From a virus (Duplodnaviria; Heunggongvirae; Uroviricota; Caudoviricetes): a DNA stretch of 14,002 nt. The stretch is from positions 1 to 14,002 of IMG/VR virus record IMGVR_UViG_2695420617_000005. The stretch is one strand, 5' to 3'. Under the pieces are notes generated by a model. It was not told the DNA's origin. It did not search any database and worked only from the letters and a program-made list of their open reading frames with translations. Of this stretch, positions 1 to 12,596 are shown piece after piece; the stretch's first letter is position 1, and each line of letters starts with the position of its first letter. A program made the translations under genes and the position numbers.

Positions 1-102
1 TCTTTTCCTTTACTTTCTTTTTCTTTTTTGTGTGTTCTGCCCTTCCTTTTTTTCCTTTTTTTTTTCCGCTTTCGGCGCCCCCCGAGATCTACCCCTCTCT
101 TT
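1..102. other. Low-complexity T/C-rich non-biological sequence (read-end junk) preceding an adapter
   Basis: Homopolymer-like T and C runs with no coding or structural logic, immediately followed by a library adapter; the ORF-track translation here (FLFFLFFF...) is meaningless. Confidence 0.6.
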
Positions 103-135
103 TCGTCGTCAGCGTCAGATGTGTATAAGAGACAG
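103..135 (+). other. Nextera/Tn5 transposase adapter ending in the 19-bp mosaic end AGATGTGTATAAGAGACAG
   Basis: tcgtcgtcagcgtcAGATGTGTATAAGAGACAG matches the Nextera read-1 adapter plus Tn5 ME as recalled, with one mismatch in the overhang; ME at 117-135. Genuine sequence starts at 136. Confidence 0.85.
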
Positions 136-279
136 GTTTTCGACGTTACACGCATGATTTTGTCAGCGAAAGAAGAGTTGGCTAATGAAGCGCATCCGAT
201 TGATGGCCTGTCTGGTGAATATGCGGAGAAATCCCTTGAAGAATGGGCGGAACAGATTCGCAAAGGAAGCAGCCAGTGA
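136..279 (+). CDS. 3' fragment of a CDS truncated by the contig/adapter boundary; hypothetical protein (C-terminal 47 aa)
   Basis: Open frame continuing from the adapter junction to TGA at 277-279 (VFDVTRMILSAKEEL...KGSSQ); N-terminus missing. Confidence 0.45.
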   Translation, partial: VFDVTRMILSAKEELANEAHPIDGLSGEYAEKSLEEWAEQIRKGSSQ

Positions 280-566
280 ATATCGACACGACCGTAACGA
301 TCGATACGCTCCTAAATACCGGTCTGGCACTTCTCGGTTGGCTTTACATCATGTCCCGCACATGGCGATGGCTGGGTTCCATTTTCCTAAAACAGTGGAA
401 AAAACGGCGCAAACAGGAACTACGCCAGAAGGCATTAGAAGCGTTCTATGACGCATTTGAGCTTAGCCGCATTGAACCAGGTACAACAGCCAGGATAGCG
501 ACAAAAGGCGACCTGATGATAGTGATGTTCCGACAGGAGAGAGCAGAGAAAGGGGAATCAGCATGA
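276..566 (+). CDS. Hypothetical small membrane protein (96 aa from a GTG start), one predicted TM helix then a basic tail
   Basis: GTG at 276 overlaps the upstream stop (GTGA) and is preceded by AAGGAAG at 263-269. Hydrophobic segment TLLNTGLALLGWLYIM followed by KQWKKRRKQ. Start could instead be ATG 243. Confidence 0.45.
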   Translation: MNIDTTVTIDTLLNTGLALLGWLYIMSRTWRWLGSIFLKQWKKRRKQELRQKALEAFYDAFELSRIEPGTTARIATKGDLMIVMFRQERAEKGESA

Positions 567-1297
567 AATTTTCCAAATTTTCTGAGTTGGTGAATCGTAT
601 TTTGTCCAACAACCACAGCCATCGTCGCGATATGGATGTAACAATCGTTGTTCATTCGCCTGGCAGCATTGGTTCAACACCTTCAGTTGAGGTTCAGTCA
701 ATTCACGCTGGTTTTGATTGGGATTCCGGGAAAGTGCTTATTTTCCCATCACAGCCACTGACCACGCTAACACCAGAACAGATTACTGATATCACTGATA
801 GTGTGCGCAAAGGTCAGTCTTGGCACGCATATCAGGAATACAAGAAGCATCAAGAGCAGTTGGAAAAATTGTCGATTGAACTGGATGCCGCAAAACAGCG
901 CATTGCAGAGCTGGAGGGTAATCGCACGGCGCTGGCAGTGGAGAATGAGCTGGCTCGTAAGGCAGTTCAGGCATTCTGCGATGTTGTTGGCGACAACACC
1001 GAGGTTATCGCTGAGGTGGTTGGGCGAGATGGCGTTCTGGTTATTTTGGAGGCCATGAAGGCAACAGGAAATATGCCAGCCACCGATGCTTTCCTGGCTG
1101 AAGTACGGGCGCAGGGGGTAGAGATGTACGCAGATAACCTCGACAACGTAGCAGGAGACGCAGAACGAGGTGGTTTTGATTATGCCGTTAAGTTTCTACG
1201 CAGTGAAGCGTCTAGTGTACGTTTGTTCGCCGACCAGCTTCGCAAAGGAGGCGACCAGTGGGTAAATCAAAATGCCAGGTTTATGGCAACAAGATAG
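563..1297 (+). CDS. Hypothetical protein, 244 aa, with a central predicted coiled-coil
   Basis: ATG 563 overlaps the upstream stop (ATGA). Heptad-like region EQLEKLSIELDAAKQRIAELEGNRTALAVENELARKA. No motif I can assign. Confidence 0.6.
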   Translation: MKFSKFSELVNRILSNNHSHRRDMDVTIVVHSPGSIGSTPSVEVQSIHAGFDWDSGKVLIFPSQPLTTLTPEQITDITDSVRKGQSWHAYQEYKKHQEQLEKLSIELDAAKQRIAELEGNRTALAVENELARKAVQAFCDVVGDNTEVIAEVVGRDGVLVILEAMKATGNMPATDAFLAEVRAQGVEMYADNLDNVAGDAERGGFDYAVKFLRSEASSVRLFADQLRKGGDQWVNQNARFMATR

Positions 1298-1512
1298 AAC
1301 CGTGTACGACCCTGGCAAAATCCCTTGAGCATGATGCTGAATACACGATGCGAAAAGGTCTGCTGATATACAAAATCTGGAATGAGAGTTTAACTCGCGG
1401 TCCTGATTTTGTGATGTTGCGTTCCGGTGAATTTTCTAAATTACCAGTTCGGGTTTCATTTTGTCCGTTCTGTGGTGAAAGTCTGAAAACGTGGGAGAAC
1501 AGAAATGAATGA
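1258..1512 (+). CDS. Hypothetical small zinc-ribbon-like protein, 84 aa
   Basis: GTG start with AAGGAGG at 1243-1249. Four Cys arranged C6, C16 ... C69-P-F-C72. Overlaps the 3' end of the previous gene out of frame. Confidence 0.5.
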   Translation: MGKSKCQVYGNKIEPCTTLAKSLEHDAEYTMRKGLLIYKIWNESLTRGPDFVMLRSGEFSKLPVRVSFCPFCGESLKTWENRNE

Positions 1513-1816
1513 AATTAAAGAAATACCAGTAGTACGTGATGAATATGGCTACTGGACGCATCCTGAATATGAAAAATTCTGTGACGGTCGGGAATATATT
1601 TCAACGGAAGAGTTTAACGCCTGGATGGAGGAAAATAATCTTCAATACGTCCTCTGCTTCAGAGATGAAGGATGTGCTGACCTTGATGCGTGTGATGCTG
1701 ATATTTCTGCATGGGAACCGGAACGACCAGAGGGCAATGGATGGTTTATTGGTTCAATACATGACACCGAAGATGGCCCGGTTTGTGTATGGCTGAGAAA
1801 TAAGGCCGAAGCATAA
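1505..1816 (+). CDS. Hypothetical highly acidic small protein, 103 aa
   Basis: ATG 1505 in an ATGAATGA overlap with the upstream stop. About 25 Asp/Glu versus about 8 Lys/Arg (net about -17), with Cys/Asp-rich stretch CFRDEGCADLDACDAD. Confidence 0.55.
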   Translation: MNEIKEIPVVRDEYGYWTHPEYEKFCDGREYISTEEFNAWMEENNLQYVLCFRDEGCADLDACDADISAWEPERPEGNGWFIGSIHDTEDGPVCVWLRNKAEA

Positions 1817-1920
1817 AGGCTATAAACCGACTAACAACTAAATACTGAAGATTTAAATCAGAAACGATTTTTATTAAATCCTTAACCGGAGGGATTCCTG
1901 CACCCTCAGAACATCAGGAG

Positions 1921-1938
1921 GCCGCCCGAAAGGGCGGT
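1921..1938 (+). promoter_or_regulatory. GC-rich hairpin (6-bp stem ccgccc/gggcgg, GAAA loop) between an AGGAGG motif and the start codon of the next ORF
   Basis: AGGAGG at 1916-1921, hairpin 1921-1938, ATG at 1944. No U-tract follows, so it does not look like an intrinsic terminator. Confidence 0.4.
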
Positions 1939-1943
1939 AAGAA

Positions 1944-2162
1944 ATGACTACATTATTCAGAAAAGAATATCCGCAAAAAAGTAGGGCGACAGAATTTTTG
2001 TTTCTCATTCTGTTTATCGTATTGATGATACCGATATCCCCTCTAATTTTTGTCTGGGCAATCGGGAAAATAATTGAGCCAGTTACTGAATTGTATAACG
2101 ACGTGGTATGGGCGTCATTCAACACACTGCACAATAAAATTAATCCGTATAAGGAAAACTGA
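1944..2162 (+). CDS. Hypothetical small membrane protein, 72 aa, single TM segment
   Basis: Hydrophobic stretch FLFLILFIVLMIPISPLIFVWAIG. Linear SD spacing is too long (22 nt) unless the hairpin brings SD and ATG together. Confidence 0.4.
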   Translation: MTTLFRKEYPQKSRATEFLFLILFIVLMIPISPLIFVWAIGKIIEPVTELYNDVVWASFNTLHNKINPYKEN

Positions 2163-2163
2163 T

Positions 2164-2427
2164 ATGGCAACTTTGACAAAAAAAGAACGGGCATGGTTGA
2201 ACGAATTACAGGAAGTTCTTGATCGCTGTCCATCACCGAAAAAAATTGGCTTTTACACCATTGGCGATAAAAGCATTTACCTGTATGACCTGCGCCGCAT
2301 GGATGAAATCATGGAGGCTCTTGATAATCGTTCGTCAATGGATTGGTGTGTTGCTGTCCATGATATGAATGCAGGGTTTGATGAAAAGATTTTGTTCCCC
2401 TCATCAGTTGAAAGCACTGCGGGTTAA
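2164..2427 (+). CDS. Hypothetical protein, 87 aa
   Basis: ATG 2164 two nt after the upstream stop, AAGGAAAA 8 nt upstream. The longer ORF-track version from 2074 is probably not the real start. Confidence 0.5.
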   Translation: MATLTKKERAWLNELQEVLDRCPSPKKIGFYTIGDKSIYLYDLRRMDEIMEALDNRSSMDWCVAVHDMNAGFDEKILFPSSVESTAG

Positions 2428-2437
2428 GGAGTAACAC

Positions 2438-3436
2438 ATGACCACTATTACCAAAGAACGTATTGAATTGTTCATTAAAAATCCGCTTGAAAACGGGCTT
2501 ACCCGTGGTGAACAAATGGAACTGGCACGGATTGCACTGGCATCACTGGAAGCAGAGCCTGTTCTGTATCAGTCCTGCACTCGTCCCACCTGGAATAGCG
2601 GTGTTCCGTGGACGGAATGGAAAGAACGAAGTCGTGAGTGCTACGAAGACGATTTGCGCTTTACAGACACGCCTGACCATGCCGGTTGGATATACAAATG
2701 TCGAAAACTATATACCACTCCGCCAGCGCCGATAGCGTTAGAGGCCATTGAAAACGCAATTGAATACATCCGCAGTATCGCTTTTCACATCGATGAAGAC
2801 GATTACCACGGCAAACATATTGCGTATTTCATGCAACAAGCATTGGCCTGGCTGGAAGGGCATTCATGCAGCGACGACAGACTGGGTAAAGCCGAGAATC
2901 AACCAGTACGCGGCAACCAGGCTGCCGAATCCAATCGCAGTAATGAGTGGACTGGCAATCCTGATATTGATAACGCCATCATCATGCTCGACCGCATAGA
3001 TACGCTGGAAAGTTGCGATGATGACCGTATTGAGGCGGTTAAGGCTGTTTTGCGTAGACTGGCTGGCAACTATCCGGATATTCCGGATAGTTCGGTGCCA
3101 GCGCCAGGAAAGGGCGTCACCGGTGAACGTATCCGCATTAAGCCGCATGTTTATCGCGAACTGGTTAACCGTCTCCACGATACAGCGATCAAGTGTGCTG
3201 GCACCCAGCAATTACGAGAAAGAATTAGCCGTGTTTTGGGCGACGTTATTACACCAGATCATCATAAACAAGCCGAGAAAAGTGGCCTGGAAAGGTGTCA
3301 CCTTGAGACGGCATTAAACATTAAGCCGGGGCATACGCTTGGCATTATTGATGCACTATTGGTTCATAAGATGGCCAGGGCTTTATTGCCGCTGGTGGCT
3401 GAAAAGCATGAGGCGGACCATGCCAACGAAAGCTGA
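2438..3436 (+). CDS. Hypothetical protein, 332 aa, acidic, no recognisable motif
   Basis: Strong RBS TAAGGAG at 2424-2430 with 7-nt spacing to ATG. Longest ORF in the left block. Confidence 0.65.
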   Translation: MTTITKERIELFIKNPLENGLTRGEQMELARIALASLEAEPVLYQSCTRPTWNSGVPWTEWKERSRECYEDDLRFTDTPDHAGWIYKCRKLYTTPPAPIALEAIENAIEYIRSIAFHIDEDDYHGKHIAYFMQQALAWLEGHSCSDDRLGKAENQPVRGNQAAESNRSNEWTGNPDIDNAIIMLDRIDTLESCDDDRIEAVKAVLRRLAGNYPDIPDSSVPAPGKGVTGERIRIKPHVYRELVNRLHDTAIKCAGTQQLRERISRVLGDVITPDHHKQAEKSGLERCHLETALNIKPGHTLGIIDALLVHKMARALLPLVAEKHEADHANES

Positions 3437-3704
3437 GTTACAGGCGCGCATAGAGATTCTTGAAAAAGAGAATGCGAGTCTAAAAGGAATGCTGGCACGG
3501 GCGGAAAGGGAATTATCAGGTAAATTATTGCCAGAAGAACTGCCACCAGCAGATATACCAGATCGAGTGTCCCAGTGGATGAAGTCTTTTGGTTTACCGT
3601 GGGAGGCTTTTTGGTGCTACGAGCATCGCAGATGGTGTGATGAACTTGATAGCAGTTTTCCCTACTTTGCGGAAGGGAACACTTGCCCTGAGTGTAGGAG
3701 GTAG
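3420..3704 (+). CDS. Hypothetical protein, 94 aa: N-terminal coiled-coil plus C-terminal zinc-finger-like motif
   Basis: ATG 3420 with GAGG 6 nt upstream, overlapping the 3' end of the previous gene. C-terminal CYEHRRWC...CPEC (C-x6-C-x17-C-x2-C). Confidence 0.5.
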   Translation: MPTKAELQARIEILEKENASLKGMLARAERELSGKLLPEELPPADIPDRVSQWMKSFGLPWEAFWCYEHRRWCDELDSSFPYFAEGNTCPECRR

Positions 3705-3708
3705 CGCG

Positions 3709-3969
3709 ATGTTTCGTCCTCGTCCAATACCGCCGAAAATAACTAATGGCTATCAGCCGAATACTCCAGAAATACAAGGGAGCGAGGGGCTTAAACCACC
3801 ACCAGCACCACGTATTCCGCCTGTAGCAAGGAGCGTATCATTACGACGAGAGTTAATATTAGCCTTGTCGCCCGTTCTGGCTGCCCGCCAGGATTGGGTA
3901 AGTAATGATGACCTGGCAGAAAAAATCACATCGCTGGTGGATAAAATTCTGCATAAAGCTGATCTCTGA
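3709..3969 (+). CDS. Hypothetical proline-rich protein, 86 aa
   Basis: AGGAGG at 3695-3700, 8 nt from ATG 3709. Pro-rich N-terminal half (RPRPIPPK...KPPPAPRIPP). Confidence 0.4.
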   Translation: MFRPRPIPPKITNGYQPNTPEIQGSEGLKPPPAPRIPPVARSVSLRRELILALSPVLAARQDWVSNDDLAEKITSLVDKILHKADL

Positions 3970-3979
3970 TCACCATGCT

Positions 3980-4013
3980 AAAATCCCCTCAATTCACAGA
4001 GGGGATTTTTGTC
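3980..4013 (+). terminator. Rho-independent terminator (11-bp stem, 8-nt loop, U-tract)
   Basis: aaaatcccctc (3980-3990) pairs with gaggggatttt (3999-4009), followed by TTTTTGT. Closes the upstream plus-strand gene string. Confidence 0.6.
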
Positions 4014-4014
4014 T

Positions 4015-4281
4015 ATGTTGTATAGAGTTTTATGGAAAAGCGTTATTGTCGGCGCGATACTGGCTATATCTGGGTGTGCAATGGTGCAATACAACGACGG
4101 TGAAAAGGTAAGCATACAGTCAGATGGTTGGTATGGCCTGGATAGCCTGCAAAAAACCGCAGATAAAGCCTGTCAGCAATATGGGAAGTCTAAAGCTGTA
4201 TATCAGCATAGCGCGAACGCTAATCCCCATCTCGCTCCTGGGTCGGGTGTTCAGAATACCATCTGGAAATGTGAGCTTTAA
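4015..4281 (+). CDS. Putative lipoprotein, 88 aa (signal peptide with lipobox ISGC)
   Basis: N-terminus MLYRVLWKSVIVGAILAISGC fits a signal peptidase II lipobox. Starts 2 nt after the terminator U-tract, with SD-like GAGGGG inside the terminator stem. Confidence 0.6.
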   Translation: MLYRVLWKSVIVGAILAISGCAMVQYNDGEKVSIQSDGWYGLDSLQKTADKACQQYGKSKAVYQHSANANPHLAPGSGVQNTIWKCEL

Positions 4282-4291
4282 ACGTGAGCAA

Positions 4292-4305
4292 CTGCAATAT
4301 TGCAG
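4292..4305. promoter_or_regulatory. Perfect 14-bp palindrome CTGCAATATTGCAG in the gap before the Toprim-like gene; candidate operator
   Basis: Exact dyad symmetry in the 48-bp intergenic gap. Not followed by a U-tract, so more likely a protein-binding site than a terminator. Confidence 0.35.
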
Positions 4306-4329
4306 CTAAAAGCCAGGAAGAACGGAATT

Positions 4330-4854
4330 ATGACAAAATTTGGAAAGCTGGAAGCTCATTTGCTAACTCGTAACTACCGCCATGATATACACCCATATAG
4401 ACAGTGGATCGATGAAAGTGAAGGAGTAGTTACATTCCCTCTATACAGGTTTGATGGGATGTTGGCTGGGTATCAGACATATAGACCAGGTGCTCCTAAG
4501 CAGCATAGCAATCCGAAGATGGCCCGGTATTTCACGCGATCACATGGCAGACAGTTACTTTGGGGAACCTATCTTCCTTTAAAAGATGGCCCAATATGGA
4601 TCACTGAGTCTATTTTTAAGAGCGCAGCTGTACACAACGCGGGCGGCAATTCGTGGGCGCTGTTAGGTTCGACTTTCTCCGCAGGATTACGCCGTCAACT
4701 TGCGATGCTGCCGTATGACTTTCGTGTAATAGGTGACAATGATGCGGCTGGTGAATTACTTGTGAAGTCTTTCGGAAAAGGTTTTGTGGCCCCGGATCTT
4801 GACGAGCTACAACCACATGAAGTGTCTCATTTGATTTTTAGCCATAGCCAATAA
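4330..4854 (+). CDS. Hypothetical protein with a Toprim-like motif pair, 174 aa
   Basis: AGGAAG 9 nt before ATG 4330. Conserved-Glu context WITESIF followed about 50 aa later by VIGDNDAAGE, the E ... DxD arrangement of DnaG-type Toprim domains. Called by eye, not by HMM. Confidence 0.55.
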   Translation: MTKFGKLEAHLLTRNYRHDIHPYRQWIDESEGVVTFPLYRFDGMLAGYQTYRPGAPKQHSNPKMARYFTRSHGRQLLWGTYLPLKDGPIWITESIFKSAAVHNAGGNSWALLGSTFSAGLRRQLAMLPYDFRVIGDNDAAGELLVKSFGKGFVAPDLDELQPHEVSHLIFSHSQ

Positions 4855-6096: not shown

Positions 6097-6486
6097 ATGG
6101 GTTTCCCTTCTCCTGCGGCGGATTATGTTGAAAGCCGAATTTCTCTTGATCAGCAGATAATTAGACATCCATCAGCAACCTACTTCATGCGGGCAGCTGA
6201 TAGCCATCACCGTGAGGGAATATTGCAGGGTGCTTTGCTGGTGGTTGATTCTTCGCTTACTCCAGTTGATGGTTCGCTGCTTGTGTGCGCTATGGAGGGT
6301 GAATATCGCATAAAGAGATACAGGAAGTATCCGCGCCAGCACCTGGAGGATTTAAGCACCGGGAAGAAAGAGGCGTTACCAGTAGATGACGATGGTTACA
6401 CGGGTAGTAATGCTGTTTTTGGTGTGATCACTCATGTCATCAATGATGCCCGGAGTGGGGAGTTTGATGATTGTCCGGTCATTTAA
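6097..6486 (+). CDS. humD: HumD, UmuD'-like translesion-synthesis accessory protein (129 aa)
   Basis: Begins MGFPSPAADYVE, i.e. at the position equivalent to the UmuD'-generating cleavage site (UmuD ...C/GFPSPAADYVE...). HPSATYF and Ser/Lys contexts conserved. GAGG RBS. Confidence 0.9.
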   Translation: MGFPSPAADYVESRISLDQQIIRHPSATYFMRAADSHHREGILQGALLVVDSSLTPVDGSLLVCAMEGEYRIKRYRKYPRQHLEDLSTGKKEALPVDDDGYTGSNAVFGVITHVINDARSGEFDDCPVI

Positions 6487-6558
6487 GCTGCAAAGTGCTG
6501 GTGCTTTATGCCTGTGAAGTTTATAATTGTGTACACATAACGAGTACACGAGGTGTTT

Positions 6559-6780
6559 ATGCAATCCATTAACTTCCGTACCGCGCGCGGCAACCTTTCT
6601 GAAGTGCTCAACAATGTTGAAGCCGGGGAAGAGGTTGAAATCACCCGCAGAGGCCGTGAGCCAGCAGTAATTGTCAGCAAGGCTACTTTCGAAGCCTACA
6701 AAAAAGCGGCGCTGGATGCTGAATTTGCATCCCTGTTTGACACCCTGGACTCCACCAACAAGGAACTGGTTAACCGATAA
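6559..6780 (+). CDS. phd: Phd antitoxin (73 aa)
   Basis: [49 protein letters not shown]... matches P1 Phd as recalled. TAATG overlap with doc. Confidence 0.95.
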
Positions 6781-7160
6781 TGAGGCATATATCACCGGAA
6801 GAACTTATTGCGCTTCATGATGCGAATATAAGCCGCTACGGCGGCCTGCCGGGAATGTCTGATCCGGGTAGGGCAGAGGCCATTATCGGGAGAGTTCAGG
6901 CCAGAGTTGCCTACGAAGAGATCACCGACCTTTTCGAAGTCTCCGCCACCTACCTGGTAGCTACAGCGAGAGGGCATATATTCAATGATGCCAATAAGCG
7001 TACCGCGCTAAACAGTGCGCTGCTATTTCTACGCCGTAACGGGGTGCAGGTATTTGATTCACCTGAACTGGCAGACCTTACCGTAGGCGGTGCGACTGGC
7101 GAGATATCTGTATCTTCTGTCGCCGACACGTTACGTAGATTGTATGGTTCTGCGGAGTAG
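6780..7160 (+). CDS. doc: Doc toxin, Fic-fold kinase (126 aa)
   Basis: [25 protein letters not shown]... with the Fic-type motif HIFNDANKR; matches P1 Doc as recalled. Confidence 0.95.
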
Positions 7161-7371: not shown

Positions 7372-8415
7372 GTGAAAGCCGTAATTACTCCCTTTGTACA
7401 AAAAGAGCTTGGCGTCGCCACATTCAAAGTGGATCAGGAAGTCAGAAAGCTGGTGGAGGCTGGCCGTAAATTTATTATGGAGCCGGTGCCGCGTGAGTTA
7501 ATCGAGCACATGGACGACGGCCTCGTTGTTTCCGAGCAAACTATGGCAACAAATGAGGCGTTGCAGCCGTTTTTTAACAGCGATGAACTGTTTCGCCGTA
7601 TTGGTGGAATTGACGCGCTGGTGGCGTGGTTGCGCAGGAAAGAGGGGCAATGCCAGGCCGCAGATCGTAGCTGGTGTGACAACCATATTGTCCACGCAGA
7701 ACGAGACAATAGCGCGGTGTTGTTGTGCTGGCATCACGATAACCATTACCGGATGCGTGGTTTTAATGAGTTGAAAGAAACGCTGCATAATAATCGCGTT
7801 AACTGGATACTGGATGTCGCCCGTCAGGAAATGGGGCTTTCAGATGGCCATGATTTAAGTATTCAGGAACTGTGCTGGTGGGCTTTCATGCGCAACATGA
7901 TGCACCTGATGCCGGAAGAAGTTTGCCGTATATCAATAAATAAGATGAAAGCCGCAACGCAGGATAGCGGACCTCTGAAAGAGGCGGATATTCGCCCGTA
8001 TGACGATCGCGCTACAGCATATGTTCAGATGATGGAAGAACGCGCCGCGCCGATGCGTGCAAAAGTATGCCCTGTGGATGTTGACTCCGACCCAAGTATG
8101 GCGCATTTCAAGATACCAAAACTTCAATCGCTAAAATTGCCCGAGTACATGGACTTTGTGGCTTCCCGTCCATGCTGTGGCTGTGGAGCTGCGGGAGCTG
8201 GCGCTCACATTACGCCTTATATCGTTCGTCATAGTCGATTATGCGCGCATGACATTTATGCTATTCCTCTGTGCCAGTCATGCCAGCGTGATATTGAGCG
8301 TGACCGCGATAATTGGGAGAAGACGCACGGTAGGCTGGCGATGCATCAACGATTGTTCTTTGATTACGCGCTTGGAGTCGGCGCTATCACAAGTCATTCG
8401 TCGAGTGTTAGATAA
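7372..8415 (+). CDS. pdcB: pdcB-position protein, 347 aa, Cys/His-rich C-terminal region
   Basis: GTG start with AAAGGTG RBS (start uncertain). C-terminal cluster RPCCGCG...H...RH...LCAHD...PLCQSCQRD and upstream CWHHDNHY. Name from recalled gene order only. Confidence 0.65.
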
Positions 8416-8416
8416 A

Positions 8417-8433
8417 ATTGCTCTAATGTATTG
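8417..8433 (+). promoter_or_regulatory. C1 repressor operator (ATTGCTCTAATGTATTG) overlapping the lpa promoter -35
   Basis: 14/17 match to the recalled P1 C1 operator consensus ATTGCTCTAATAAATTT, with the first 11 positions exact. Confidence 0.6.
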
Positions 8434-8458
8434 CTATTTCTTTAATCGAGGGTATTAT
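8431..8458 (+). promoter_or_regulatory. Putative sigma70 promoter for lpa (-35 TTGCTA, 16-bp spacer, -10 TATTAT)
   Basis: TTGCTA at 8431-8436 and TATTAT at 8453-8458, about 45 bp upstream of the lpa start. Confidence 0.45.
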
Positions 8459-8503
8459 ATTCGACGTTGATTAGTTGACATGGGCTAATCAGTAGGTGAC
8501 AGG

Positions 8504-8956
8504 ATGTTACTTAACTGGCAGGGACGCCACTTCATGGAAATAAATCACTCACGAATAACATCGTACGAGATTGCGGATTACATGATCCGTACTAAATCTC
8601 TTCTATCAGCGAAAGAACTCGCAGCAATTCTTGAAAAGGAATACCCGCATCTGGATGTCGATAAGCGCGATGTTTATCTGCGCTTAAAGGCTATCGCTGT
8701 GTCTAAGTATTCGTCTGTTTTGATTGATGACAGTACACGCCCACGTAGATTTCAGATCCACTCTCTGAATCCTGAATTCTTTCGCCGCAGCCGCGCTCCG
8801 CGCCGGTTTGATGAAAAACTCCAGAACGAACTCTATATGACGCAGGACGAAAAGGAACGCCGGGAGCACCAGCCTTGGGTGATGGCGCGTCAACTTTTCA
8901 ATAAGGTGGTCCGTCAGCACCGTCATTACGGTAATGCCACATCCGCACGTATCTGA
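8504..8956 (+). CDS. lpa: Lpa, late promoter activator (150 aa)
   Basis: Position between pdcB and pacA with a C1-operator-controlled promoter, as expected for P1 lpa. Start could be ATG 8504 or the in-frame Met at 8534. Confidence 0.75.
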   Translation: MLLNWQGRHFMEINHSRITSYEIADYMIRTKSLLSAKELAAILEKEYPHLDVDKRDVYLRLKAIAVSKYSSVLIDDSTRPRRFQIHSLNPEFFRRSRAPRRFDEKLQNELYMTQDEKERREHQPWVMARQLFNKVVRQHRHYGNATSARI

Positions 8957-8966
8957 TTGATTGCTT

Positions 8967-8984
8967 GCCCGTTCCGGGCCTTTT
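8967..8984 (+). terminator. Possible short intrinsic terminator after lpa (GCCCG-ttc-CGGGC + CTTTT)
   Basis: 5-bp GC stem with 3-nt loop followed by a short T-run; weak by stem length. Confidence 0.35.
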
Positions 8985-9042
8985 GACATGTGACTTTCGT
9001 TACCCTCGCGTCAAAAAGAGTTTTATACGAAAGGAAGCATAA

Positions 9043-10236
9043 GTGACCTGGGACGATCACAAGAAGAATTTTGCTCGCCTGGCGCGAGATGGTGGTTACA
9101 CCATCGCACAATATGCCGCCGAGTTTAATCTCAACCCAAACACCGCACGTCGTTATCTCCGTGCATTCAAAGAAGACACCGGAACAGCGGACAGCCGTAA
9201 GCCAAATAAGCCTGTCAGAAAACCACTAAAAAGCATGATCATTGATCACGCTAATGATCAACGTGCAGGTGATCACGTTGTGGCTGAAATGGCTGAAAAA
9301 CAAAGAGTTAATGCTGTTGTCAGTGCCGCAGTCGAGAACGCGAAGCGCCAGAATAAGCGCATAAATGATCGTTCTGATGATCATGACGTGATCACCCGCG
9401 CCCACCGGACCTTACGTGATCGCCTGGAACGCGACACCCTGGATGATGATGGTGAACGCTTTGAATTCGAAGCTGGCGATTACCTGATAGATAACGTTGA
9501 AGCGCGGAAGGCCGCGCGCGCTATGTTGCGTCGGTCCGGGGCTGATGTTCTGGAAACCACTCTTCTGGAAAAGTCTCTCTCTCATCTCCTTATGCTGGAG
9601 AACGCCAGGGATACGTGTATTCGCCTGGTGCAGGAAATGCGCGATCAGCAAAAAGACGATGATGAAGGTACTCCGCCTGAATACCGTATCGCGAGCATGC
9701 TAAACAGCTGTTCCGCGCAGATAAGCAGCCTGATCAACACCATTTACAGCATCCGGAATAACTATCGAAAAGAAAGCCGGGAGGCGGAAAAGCACGCTTT
9801 GTCTATGGGGCAAGCTGGCATTGTTAAGCTGGCATACGAACGAAAGCGTGAAAATAACTGGTCAGTGCTGGAAGCAGCTGAATTCATCGAGGCGCATGGC
9901 GGGAAAGTGCCGCCCCTGATGCTGGAGCAAATCAAAGCCGATCTGCGTGCTCCTAAGACCAATACCGATGATGAGGAAAGGCAAACAGCCGTCGGTGGCC
10001 CTTCTCTTGAAGATCTGGACAAAGTTGCGCGAGAACGGGCCGCCAACCGCCGCGCGGATGCCGCATTGTGGATTGAGCAGCGTAGGGAAGAAATCGCCGA
10101 TATCGTTGATACAGGCGGTTATGGAGATGTTGATACTGAAGGTGTATCAAACGACCCATGGCTGGAACAAGACCTGGACGAAGACGAGGAGGAAGACGAA
10201 GAAGTTACCCGCAAGCTATACGGGGATGATGATTAA
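9043..10236 (+). CDS. pacA: PacA, terminase/pacase subunit (397 aa); contains the pac site
   Basis: GTG start with AAAGGAAG RBS. Begins [28 protein letters not shown]..., length 397 aa, acidic C-tail; pac hexamer array lies inside the gene. Confidence 0.9.
9236..9394. other. P1 pac packaging site: 4 + 3 TGATC(A/G) hexamers, each with a Dam GATC
   Basis: TGATCA at 9236, 9243, 9255, 9270; TGATCG at 9366; TGATCA at 9378, 9389. Matches the known pac architecture; cleavage region is the roughly 90-bp spacer between the clusters. Confidence 0.85.
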
Positions 10237-11720
10237 TGGCCAGAAGTTGCGTAACGGATCCACGTTGGCGCGAGCTGGTGGCGCTATATCGTTATGACTG
10301 GATTGCGGCCGCTGATGTTTTGTTCGGCAAAACACCTACCTGGCAGCAGGATCTGATTATTGAGTCTGTGCAGGAACAGGGTAGCAAGACATCTGTTTCG
10401 TCTGGTCACGGTACCGGGAAATCAGACATGACTTCTATCATGATCATGTTGTTCATAATCATGTATCCCGGTGCCCGCGCTATTATCGTTGCGAACAAAA
10501 TTCAGCAGGTAATGACCGGTATATTCAAGTACATCAAGATAAACTGGGCTACTGCCACCAGCCGTTTCCCATGGCTTGCTGATTATTTTGTTCTGACAGA
10601 AACCGCTTTCTATGAGGTTACTGGTAAAGGTGTATGGACTGTAGTACCGAAGGGCTTTCGTCTGGGAAGTGAAGAAGCTCTCGCCGGTGAACACGCAGAT
10701 CATCTTCTGTATATTATCGATGAAGCCTCCGGTGTCAGTGATAGAGCTTTCGGTATCATCACCGGTGCTCTTACCGGACAGGATAACCGCATCTTATTAC
10801 TGTCACAGCCTACACGCCCAAGCGGCTATTTCTACGATACACACCATAAACTGGCCAAGCGTCCTGGTAACCCTGATGGCGTTTATACGGCGATCACGCT
10901 TAACAGTGAGGAATCACCGCTGGTAACGCCAGCATTTATCAAAATGAAGCTGGCGGAGTACGGCGGGCGTGATAACCCTATGTACATGATTAAGGTACGC
11001 GGCCTATTCCCTAAATCACAGGATGGCTTCCTTCTTGGACGTGATGAGGTTGAACGTGCAACGCGGCGGAAAGTCAAGATTGCAAAAGGATGGGGCTGGC
11101 TTGCATGTGTGGACGTTGCTGGTGGTACGGGACGGGATAAGTCCGTTATCAATATCATGATGGTGTCCGGCCAGCGAAATAAACGCCGTGTAATCAACTA
11201 TCGAATGCTGGAATACACAGACGTTACAGAAACGCAGCTTGCCGCCAAAATTTTCGCAGAATGTAATCCTGAGCGATTCCCAAATATCACCATAGCGATA
11301 GACGGCGATGGCCTGGGTAAAGCAACGGCGGATCTGATGTACGAGTATTATGGTATTACCGTACAGCGTATACGCTGGGGTAAAAAGATGCATAGCCGTG
11401 AAGATAAGAGCCTGTACTTTGATAAACGTGCTTATGCCAACGTTCAAGCCGCAGAGGCCGTAAAATCTGGTCGTATGAGACTGGATAAGGGTAATGAAAC
11501 TATTGAGGAAGCGTCGAAAATCCCTGTAGGGATTAACTCCGCAGGTCAATGGAAGGTGATGAGTAAGGAGGATATGAAGAAAAAACTCAACCTGCACTCA
11601 CCAGACCATTGGGATACATATTGTTTCGCTATGCTGGCGGATTATGTTCCCCAGGATGAAGTGCTTAGCGTCGAAGACGAAGCGCAGGTTGATGAAGCTC
11701 TGGCATGGCTTAATGAATAA
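10236..11720 (+). CDS. pacB: PacB, terminase large/ATPase subunit (494 aa)
   Basis: TAATG overlap with pacA. Walker A-like P-loop [10 protein letters not shown] near the N-terminus; length 494 aa. Confidence 0.9.
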
Positions 11721-11744
11721 CTCATTGACCATGCCGGATAGAAA

Positions 11745-12596
11745 CTATTGCGCGCTTTCGGGGTTGTCGTTTACCGGCTGCCCCTTCTTAGTTTTACGGC
11801 TGCGCGTAACTGATGCGGCTGATTTGACCTTTTTCTCTTCGCGAGTGATGGCAATTTGTTTTTTTACATTTTCAATATCTGCCAGGCGATATATTTTTGC
11901 CTGCGGCCAGCGGTCGCAGATGATCGGTTCTATGGAGTCATAAAGGCTAAATTTTGCTTTCTCGAATTCACCGTTGATGATGATTCCATCACGGAGAGTT
12001 TCATCGCAGATAAACACACCACACAGCGGCACATGGTAACTAACTGATTTACCATCATTGTAGTTAGGGCTACTGGAAATGTAATGGACGCGTAGCATTG
12101 TTTCGCTAAAGCCGTGTACACGCATACGGAATTTTTCATCCTCCGGGTACTGCTTCATTAGCTCTTTTGTTGCTTCCAGGTTCTCTATGTATTTCGCACT
12201 GTGCTCATTGATCCCCGCGCTTTTCTGGATGCGAATGTCCTTATCAATCAGATGAATAATGCGGCCAGCGGTCATGTTGACGCTGTTCACAGCTTCTGTC
12301 TGATAAGTCGTAACCTTACGCACACCGCGAAGGATGTTAGGCACTGGATATAAAATAGTCTTTGGGATATTGAGGTCTGGGTACTGTTCCAGTTCCCGCG
12401 CCATTAAAGTCCATTTATCAATTTCAGCCTGAATGCTGTCCGTTTCTTTGAACGGCAGAACGACAACCGGGCGAACAGGACGACCGTCGCTGGCGGCATC
12501 AACGTGTTGGGCGCGTGCAACAGCTTTTTTTAGAAAGAGATCCCTGAAGCTGACGAACTCCTGGTACAGTTGTTCGCCGTAGACATAATTTATCAT
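11745..12596 (-). CDS. c1: C1 master repressor of lysogeny (283 aa)
   Basis: MINYVYGEQLYQEFVSFRDLFLKK..., 283 aa, GGAGGAGG RBS. Convergent with pacB, adjacent to coi and the operator cluster. Confidence 0.9.
   Translation of the reverse strand: MINYVYGEQLYQEFVSFRDLFLKKAVARAQHVDAASDGRPVRPVVVLPFKETDSIQAEIDKWTLMARELEQYPDLNIPKTILYPVPNILRGVRKVTTYQTEAVNSVNMTAGRIIHLIDKDIRIQKSAGINEHSAKYIENLEATKELMKQYPEDEKFRMRVHGFSETMLRVHYISSSPNYNDGKSVSYHVPLCGVFICDETLRDGIIINGEFEKAKFSLYDSIEPIICDRWPQAKIYRLADIENVKKQIAITREEKKVKSAASVTRSRKTKKGQPVNDNPESAQ

Follow-up and report, generated by a model that had tools for sequence, protein, structure and literature searches.

The gene considered here lies within a long run of small accessory genes that share one orientation (Ea22-like, DUF4752, DUF4014, and others) in a 14,002-nucleotide stretch of tailed-phage DNA, hereafter the window, and encodes a small, strongly acidic protein (Table 1). 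From position 136 onward the window is 100% identical to the Escherichia coli plasmid p28Eco12, a 92-kb P1-like phage-plasmid that carries c1, a terminase gene and an adjacent large gene, lpa, phd/doc, genes for an S24 peptidase and a cre-type integrase, ref, and a 6.8-kb DarB-like methylase gene annotated as "N-6 DNA methylase." We take the terminase gene to be P1 pacA and the adjacent large gene, which RefSeq lists as hypothetical, to be pacB. From upstream of the window as far as a strong terminator-like hairpin, every annotated gene is on the plus strand, and the hairpin, which lies where this block ends, probably marks the end of the operon.

Table 1. Features at the acidic-protein locus, in window coordinates
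Feature	Position	Strand	Basis and remarks
84-aa ORF, GTG start, PHROG 4030	1258..1512	+	Overlaps the acidic-protein gene; four conserved Cys
Shine-Dalgarno-like GGGAG	1493..1497	+	Read off the sequence; 7 nt 5' of the ATG, within the end of the upstream ORF; putative function
Acidic-protein gene, stop codon included	1505..1816	+	ORF and translation; 100% DNA match to E. coli "hypothetical protein" genes
N-terminal motif V-x-R-D-x-x-G-x-W-x-H-P, codons 9-20	1529..1564	+	At least 80% conservation in 157 members; invariant alignment columns
Variable acidic loop between beta1 and beta2, codons 53-70	1661..1714	+	pLDDT 65-69 (residues 51-70); length and sequence vary
Most conserved part, codons 70-98: predicted beta2-beta3 hairpin with acidic tip H86-D87-T88-E89-D90	1712..1798	+	Conservation and model strands
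Terminator-like hairpin and T-run	3980..4009	+	11-bp stem AAAATCCCCTC...GAGGGGATTTT; closes the accessory block

The rest of the window (4300-4854, 6097-7160, and 7372-12596) is standard P1-like backbone, with genes for a toprim-domain protein, an S24 peptidase (HumD-like), Phd/Doc, a DUF968 protein, the late promoter activator Lpa, and the terminase with its adjacent large gene; the C1 repressor gene is on the minus strand. Positions 1-135 consist of T/C-rich low-complexity sequence followed by the Nextera read-1 adapter (...AGATGTGTATAAGAGACAG at 117-135); this segment represents contamination (assembly or adapter), and its ORFs are artifacts. Elsewhere in the accessory block, a GC-rich hairpin (GCCGCCC-GAAA-GGGCGGT, 1921-1938) sits between an AGGAGG at 1916-1921 and the ATG of the DUF4014 gene at 1944 (window 1916-1946). 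Because a T-run is absent, this hairpin is not a terminator; its stem could bring the Shine-Dalgarno sequence near the start codon or regulate translation. Positions 2438-3436 encode an intact 332-aa Ea22-like chimera, with an N terminus matching phrog_3323/660 and a C terminus matching phrog_21459. On the identical DNA of p28Eco12, RefSeq places a 126-nt "partial" pseudogene and a separate 873-nt CDS, an annotation that may be inconsistent. An Rfam scan found no RNA family at threshold anywhere within the window.

The acidic-protein ORF begins with ATG, ends with TAA, and specifies 103 residues. It is a real coding gene under purifying selection, as is evident from comparison with its ortholog in phage D6, whose product is 73% identical: the DNA differences fall at codon positions 1, 2, and 3 in the proportion 18/16/45, 29 of the codon changes are synonymous and 28 nonsynonymous, and homologs retain a strict motif. 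The product contains 16 Glu and 9 Asp, together 25 of its 103 residues (24.3%), against 8 Lys plus Arg, which gives a calculated pI of 4.1 and a net charge of -17. These values agree with the first-pass annotation of this DNA, which had described a protein about a quarter Asp/Glu with a net charge of about -17. It is the most acidic product among window ORFs of at least 60 aa, and none of 249 cluster representatives of neighboring genes in related phage loci equaled it in acidic fraction or in charge per residue. The acidic residues had also been described as clustered in the C-terminal half, but they are spread almost evenly, with 12 in residues 1-51 and 13 in residues 52-103; the one local concentration, around residues 52-73, reaches 6 acidic residues in 15 (six lie within 54-66). 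Translational coupling to the upstream ORF, another early proposal, is plausible, given that the two frames overlap by 8 nt (ATG at 1505; upstream stop at 1510-1512) and that GGGAG lies 7 nt upstream of the ATG.

The upstream 84-aa protein belongs to a narrow, enterobacterial family (phrog_4030, 62 clusters) in which Cys residues C6, C16, C69, and C72 are nearly invariant. This four-Cys pattern is compatible with a metal site; the first pair is spaced C-x9-C, with no CxxC knuckle there, and the AlphaFold2 model of the protein is poor and unreliable (pLDDT 58.9). The Pfam family Lar_restr_allev (PF14354) matched neither the 84-aa nor the 103-aa protein. The 84-aa protein was considered as a Lar homolog and rejected as such: hhalign comparison with a Lar-like fusion covered 15 columns around CPFCG, with a probability of 27%. 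The first-pass annotation had presented this ORF as a zinc-ribbon-like partner of the acidic gene. The pairing is not a constant feature of the gene. Among 81 loci that have a close homolog of the acidic protein and a detected upstream ORF, the 84-aa ORF is present in 55 and an unrelated 75-aa ORF in 26, while in D6, mEp213, and PY54 the acidic gene has other neighbors and no 84-aa partner upstream. An obligate two-gene module was accordingly discarded, with another partner found in about a third of the close loci and in all of the distant ones examined. The genes 3' of the acidic gene differ between close loci too, and because the neighbors vary on both sides the acidic gene acts as a cassette of its own. 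One homolog of the 84-aa protein (P0340) switches near its C terminus to ALLMHCWFIRWPGLYCRWW, one residue off the peptide encoded at about position 3339 of the window (about 3339-3400); from its sequence, the switch looks like a recombination or deletion joint that removed the acidic gene and the next three genes in another genome.

The acidic protein is identical to RefSeq WP_001002676.1, annotated as "hypothetical protein," and by profile comparison is a full-length member of PHROG 1372, a family without an assigned function (E = 8.5e-56, residues 1-102 on profile positions 55-158 of 194), with weaker matches to PHROGs 20322 and 6157. The sequence is thus already in databases in thousands of copies, and its family is catalogued; a literature search by accession, PHROG identifier, motifs, and the phage name Rac-SA53 found no function, structure, or publication, and the family goes unmentioned in two papers on anti-defense. 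The gene for WP_001002676.1 is carried by 766 of 5426 complete E. coli genomes (14%, about one in seven), almost always within lambdoid or Rac-like prophages. Its genomic places number 1179 on chromosomes and only 6 on plasmids, so the usual home of the gene is a lambdoid or Rac-like prophage, and its P1-like context in the window is exceptional. A word-indexed search recovered 236 clusters, every one from Enterobacterales, and an exhaustive profile search recovered at least 743 cluster representatives at E <= 1e-3, with 240 at E <= 1e-10. In tblastn searches of phage genomes, members were found in phages of Escherichia, Salmonella, Klebsiella, Yersinia, Erwinia, Pectobacterium, Dickeya, and Serratia, and further in phages of Pseudomonas, Burkholderia, Vibrio, Shewanella, Acinetobacter, Ralstonia, and Variovorax; almost all of them carry a "hypothetical" annotation.

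Conservation was assessed in 157 members, nonredundant at 70% identity, with a threshold of at least 80% per column. The resulting family signature is V-x-R-D-x-x-G-x-W-x-H-P ... W ... W-x-P-x-x-P-x-G-x-G-W-F-x-x-S-I-H-D-T-E-D-G-P-x-x-x-W-x-R, and the loop between its two halves carries a longer insert in distant relatives. The residues H19, C26, H86, and C94 were considered as a zinc site, and this was rejected on the grounds that C26 and C94 are variable in distant members. One 305-aa relative (P0135) has two tandem copies of the acidic domain. The charge of the family behaves differently from its signature. Stand-alone members have a median net charge of -16 among close relatives and -15 among distant ones, and yet only about 10 alignment columns of the 157 members are consistently acidic, most acidic positions being variable. 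Since net charge is kept family-wide while so few columns stay acidic, this pattern suggests selection on overall charge and not just on particular residues, as would be expected of a mimic or a decoy.

An AlphaFold2 model built from a 74-sequence alignment predicts a confident, compact domain (mean pLDDT 84.5, pTM 0.76) with a two-helix, three-strand alpha/beta architecture: helices at residues 20-26 and 34-43, a strand at 46-52, and a hairpin with strands at 80-88 and 91-99. The loop at 53-70 is acidic and of lower confidence, and the tip of the hairpin is formed by the invariant HDTEDG. Foldseek comparison of the model with the PDB gave no significant match (best E = 0.5), and searches of PDB sequences, whether started from the protein itself or from the family profile, returned no solved relative and no Ocr. 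Against BFVD, the only significant Foldseek neighbors were uncharacterized phage proteins of the same family, with TM-scores up to 0.87. Pfam and NCBIfam scans of the protein and its neighbors gave nothing significant; for the protein, Pfam at E <= 1 yielded one weak, sub-threshold match, to RasGEF_N_2. The fold is therefore currently without a solved relative.

Across phages and prophages, the acidic-family gene is always oriented in the same direction as early or accessory genes, although the place it occupies varies from one element type to another. In E. coli 55989 and in phage Rac-SA53, it lies in a nin-like region, downstream of the replication genes; in P1-like plasmids, it is in the variable region, and in the P1-like phage D6 just upstream of ppp; and in mEp213, it is part of the leftward early operon, in the interval from N to cIII. 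Lambda has ral in this interval. In the N15-like phage PY54, it shares an operon with a Lar-like gene and genes for RdgC, an exonuclease, a DNA methyltransferase, and DinI; in Vibrio phage Rostov 7, it is near genes for RdgC and a 3'-5' exoribonuclease; and in the Pseudomonas element phiAH14a, it adjoins genes for a DNA methyltransferase and an integrase. In Salmonella Rac-like prophages, a family member directly follows recE-recT and precedes xis-int, and in K-12 Rac this same slot after recE-recT is occupied by ralR (lar). The slots in which the acidic gene is found are known to hold host-takeover and anti-defense genes. Two observations on individual settings may be added. In Salmonella prophages at icd (loci L091-L095, positions 4001-4321), the family member is 106 aa long and was found in 12324 blocks of the collection, being extremely common in Salmonella. 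In the E. coli 55989 prophage (locus L001, 13441-13623), the gene just downstream specifies a DUF7167 protein of 60 aa whose acidity, with D/E runs, is higher still; it follows the acidic gene in 19 related loci and is absent from the window.

More distant settings were sampled through 79 viral loci retrieved with a degenerate DNA pattern for the hairpin motif. Their neighbors are very diverse (306 clusters for 510 proteins), and the only recurrent ones are C5 DNA methyltransferases and integrases. A C5 DNA methyltransferase gene lies within 4 kb in 18-19 of the 79, a co-occurrence that one phage clade alone may account for; RdgC was seen in 4, and no Lar-like ORF was detected in any of these loci. 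Because prophage accessory regions hold exclusion genes, with sieB in the same Rac region, and because the acidic gene is so common in E. coli genomes, it could be a lysogenic-conversion or exclusion gene that helps the lysogen, for example by blocking the DNA-binding protein of a competing phage. We consider this improbable, however: the gene is oriented with lytic early operons and not as repressor-side morons are, a scan of positions 1-4400 found no promoter-like site on the plus strand, and the PADLOC defense models matched neither the acidic protein nor seven other proteins nearby in the window.

About half of the best 150 representatives of the family are multidomain proteins, with the acidic domain at either end. 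Among the 73 longest multidomain relatives, a Lar-like domain occurs in three (P0145, P0217, and P0241) and an Rv2179c-like 3'-5' exonuclease domain in two, while RdgC, a Tad2-like domain, and a DHH/DHHA1 phosphoesterase are each represented by one fusion; nine carry an unannotated module ending in KAGALILAEIERLDR. Ea22-like coiled coils are fused in several relatives. The unannotated module, the most frequent fusion partner seen, is about 95 aa long with an end of the form ...RRxLVKAGALILAEIERLDR and stands on either side of the acidic domain (P0152, P0172, P0173, P0214, P0224, P0226, P0227, P0255, and P0151); it has no Pfam or PDB match and falls in several PHROGs of unknown function. Because the fusion partners are of the same kinds as the genes that adjoin the stand-alone form, the fusions may mainly record gene neighborhood and not mechanism.

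Two further explanations may be considered. In the first, the acidic protein would be an accessory or regulatory module of phage recombination and nucleic-acid processing, binding or modulating, for example, RecE/RecT, RdgC, a 3'-5' exonuclease, or the SSB/RecA of the host, and would have no anti-defense role. Its place immediately after recE-recT in a Salmonella prophage type that is found very widely points in this direction, as do the fusions to RdgC, the Rv2179c-like exonuclease, and the DHH phosphoesterase, and the nearby genes for RdgC and an exonuclease or exoribonuclease in Rostov 7 and PY54, together with RdgC in the four distant loci. Most copies, however, stand alone beside unrelated genes, the copies in the window and in E. 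coli 55989 are far from any recombination gene, and the domain order in the fusions varies, as would be expected if neighbors had been joined by chance. We regard this explanation as possible but unlikely. In the second, the protein would be a domain that binds a ligand or a metal (a sponge that soaks up a nucleotide immune signal would be one example), with a pocket formed by R11, D12, H19, H86, D87, E89, D90, R98, and Trp residues. The strict conservation of these polar and Trp residues across a very divergent family would fit such a pocket, and so would the Tad2-like and DHH/DHHA1 phosphoesterase fusions. On the other hand, a net charge near -15 is unfavorable for binding anionic nucleotides, each kind of fusion was seen a single time, and fold comparison revealed no resemblance to Tad1, Tad2, Acb2, or any solved binder. 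We regard a ligand- or metal-binding function as very improbable.

Small, very acidic phage proteins invite comparison with known mimics of nucleic acid, and the first-pass annotation had tentatively placed this one with the Ocr and ArdA types of restriction inhibitor. That assignment fails: there is no Pfam, NCBIfam, or PDB sequence match and no structural match, and by sequence and predicted fold the acidic protein is unrelated to Ocr, ArdA, or any solved DNA mimic. The resemblance to Ocr (T7 gp0.3) is one of general character, in that both are small (about 100-117 aa), phage encoded, very acidic, and presumably early. Ocr is an all-helical, elongated dimer that inhibits type I restriction-modification (R-M) and BREX; its carboxylates follow the spacing of DNA phosphates, and it binds the methylase core of type I R-M enzymes. 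The two proteins share no sequence similarity, and the modeled acidic protein, a compact alpha/beta domain with no PDB relative, does not have the all-helical, elongated fold with which Ocr mimics bent B-DNA. The settings differ as well, Ocr being encoded by the first gene of a virulent phage to enter the cell and the acidic protein by accessory regions of temperate phages. ArdA, which is larger and has three domains, is likewise acidic and borne on mobile elements, but it has no Pfam or PDB match to the acidic protein, and the acidic gene lies elsewhere than in the leading region of a plasmid. Neither Lar/RalR of Rac nor Ral of lambda, all of them small proteins, is particularly acidic. They share genomic slots with the acidic gene, and some acidic-family relatives are fused to a Lar-like zinc-ribbon domain, but Lar and the acidic protein are not homologous, and the 84-aa neighbor has the CPFCG knuckle only. 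In size and acidity the acidic protein is also like Ugi, AcrIIA4, T7 gp5.9, lambda Gam, and barstar, some of which are compact alpha/beta proteins. Each of these known mimics folds in its own way, and a new compact fold is therefore no argument against mimicry. The strong negative charge expected of a DNA mimic is present in the acidic protein and conserved in its homologs.

These comparisons bear on the possibility that the acidic protein inhibits R-M systems, of type I or otherwise, by mimicking DNA, resembling Ocr and ArdA in action though unrelated to them. Extreme acidity conserved throughout the family is what such an inhibitor would show. The use of the ralR/lar slot in Rac-type prophages and of the N-cIII interval in mEp213, the three Lar-like fusions and the Lar-like gene in the PY54 operon, and the orphan DNA methyltransferases that are often nearby can be read in the same way. 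Acidity by itself is unspecific, however; analogy of position is weak in mosaic phage genomes; the link to Lar is sporadic; and neither sequence nor fold relates the protein to Ocr, ArdA, or any solved DNA mimic. In addition, the P1-like replicon already has DarB-type anti-restriction, which makes a second anti-type-I function unnecessary, though still conceivable. An inhibitor of restriction in particular is unlikely, and it is in any case a narrower subset of the decoy explanation considered next.

The explanation that we favor, tentatively, is that the acidic protein is a decoy, made early and in stoichiometric amounts, for a basic nucleic-acid-binding protein of the host, with an anti-defense or anti-nuclease effect. 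In this reading it is a soluble, single-domain, strongly acidic alpha/beta protein from a large, uncharacterized accessory ("moron") family found in early regions of temperate phages of Proteobacteria. The protein would be produced early after infection or induction and would act stoichiometrically; its negative surface, an invariant Trp/His-rich face, and the hairpin tip SIHDTEDGP would together bind and block the host protein, which would be a restriction complex or else a nuclease of defense or repair, RecBCD being an example of the latter. Several features are consistent with such a decoy: the family is large and its charge conserved, its genes occupy early accessory slots, the predicted domain is compact and confidently modeled, and most enzymes would need a longer ORF. 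The C5 methyltransferase genes near some of the distant loci and the fusions with Lar-like, Tad2-like, exonuclease, RdgC, and DHH/DHHA1 domains fit as well. Other features weigh against it. Searches revealed no homology to known anti-defense proteins; the fusion partners are a mixed set, most of them without a known function; association with Lar is rare, being limited to 3 of the 73 fusions and none of the 79 distant loci; and the strictly conserved His, Asp, Glu, and Arg residues could instead form a ligand or metal site. Of the details that had been advanced in favor of the idea at the outset, the C-terminal clustering of acidic residues was not borne out, and the zinc-ribbon-like neighbor is not an obligate partner. 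The computations neither support nor refute the acidic-decoy idea, the points in its favor are circumstantial, and an anti-defense role is a plausible guess.

A bolder form of the decoy proposal can be imagined, in which the acidic protein is the stand-alone form of a new and very widespread family of nucleic-acid-mimic inhibitors with an unseen fold, occupying a slot of the Lar/Ral/Gam type and disarming a host nuclease, with the SIHDTEDGP hairpin as the contact. If this were true, the protein might be the missing Gam-like inhibitor of RecBCD beside recE-recT, or an inhibitor of restriction or BREX. Taken as a whole, this extended version is unlikely.

Collectively, these analyses establish a real, mobile, and widespread accessory gene with a compact, persistently acidic product, and what pointers there are to a mechanism come from composition and genomic context. 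About one complete E. coli genome in seven carries the family, as do a great many Salmonella prophages. The gene travels among elements of the lambdoid, Rac-like, N15-like, and P1-like types, and the target of its product is therefore probably a common host function. If the protein has no anti-defense role, it is one of many uncharacterized phage accessory genes, and the finding is an ordinary one. If it is an anti-defense decoy, then a large family, comprising hundreds of clusters, would be added to the catalog of phage counter-defense, and a function would be given to a conserved fold that has no solved relative.
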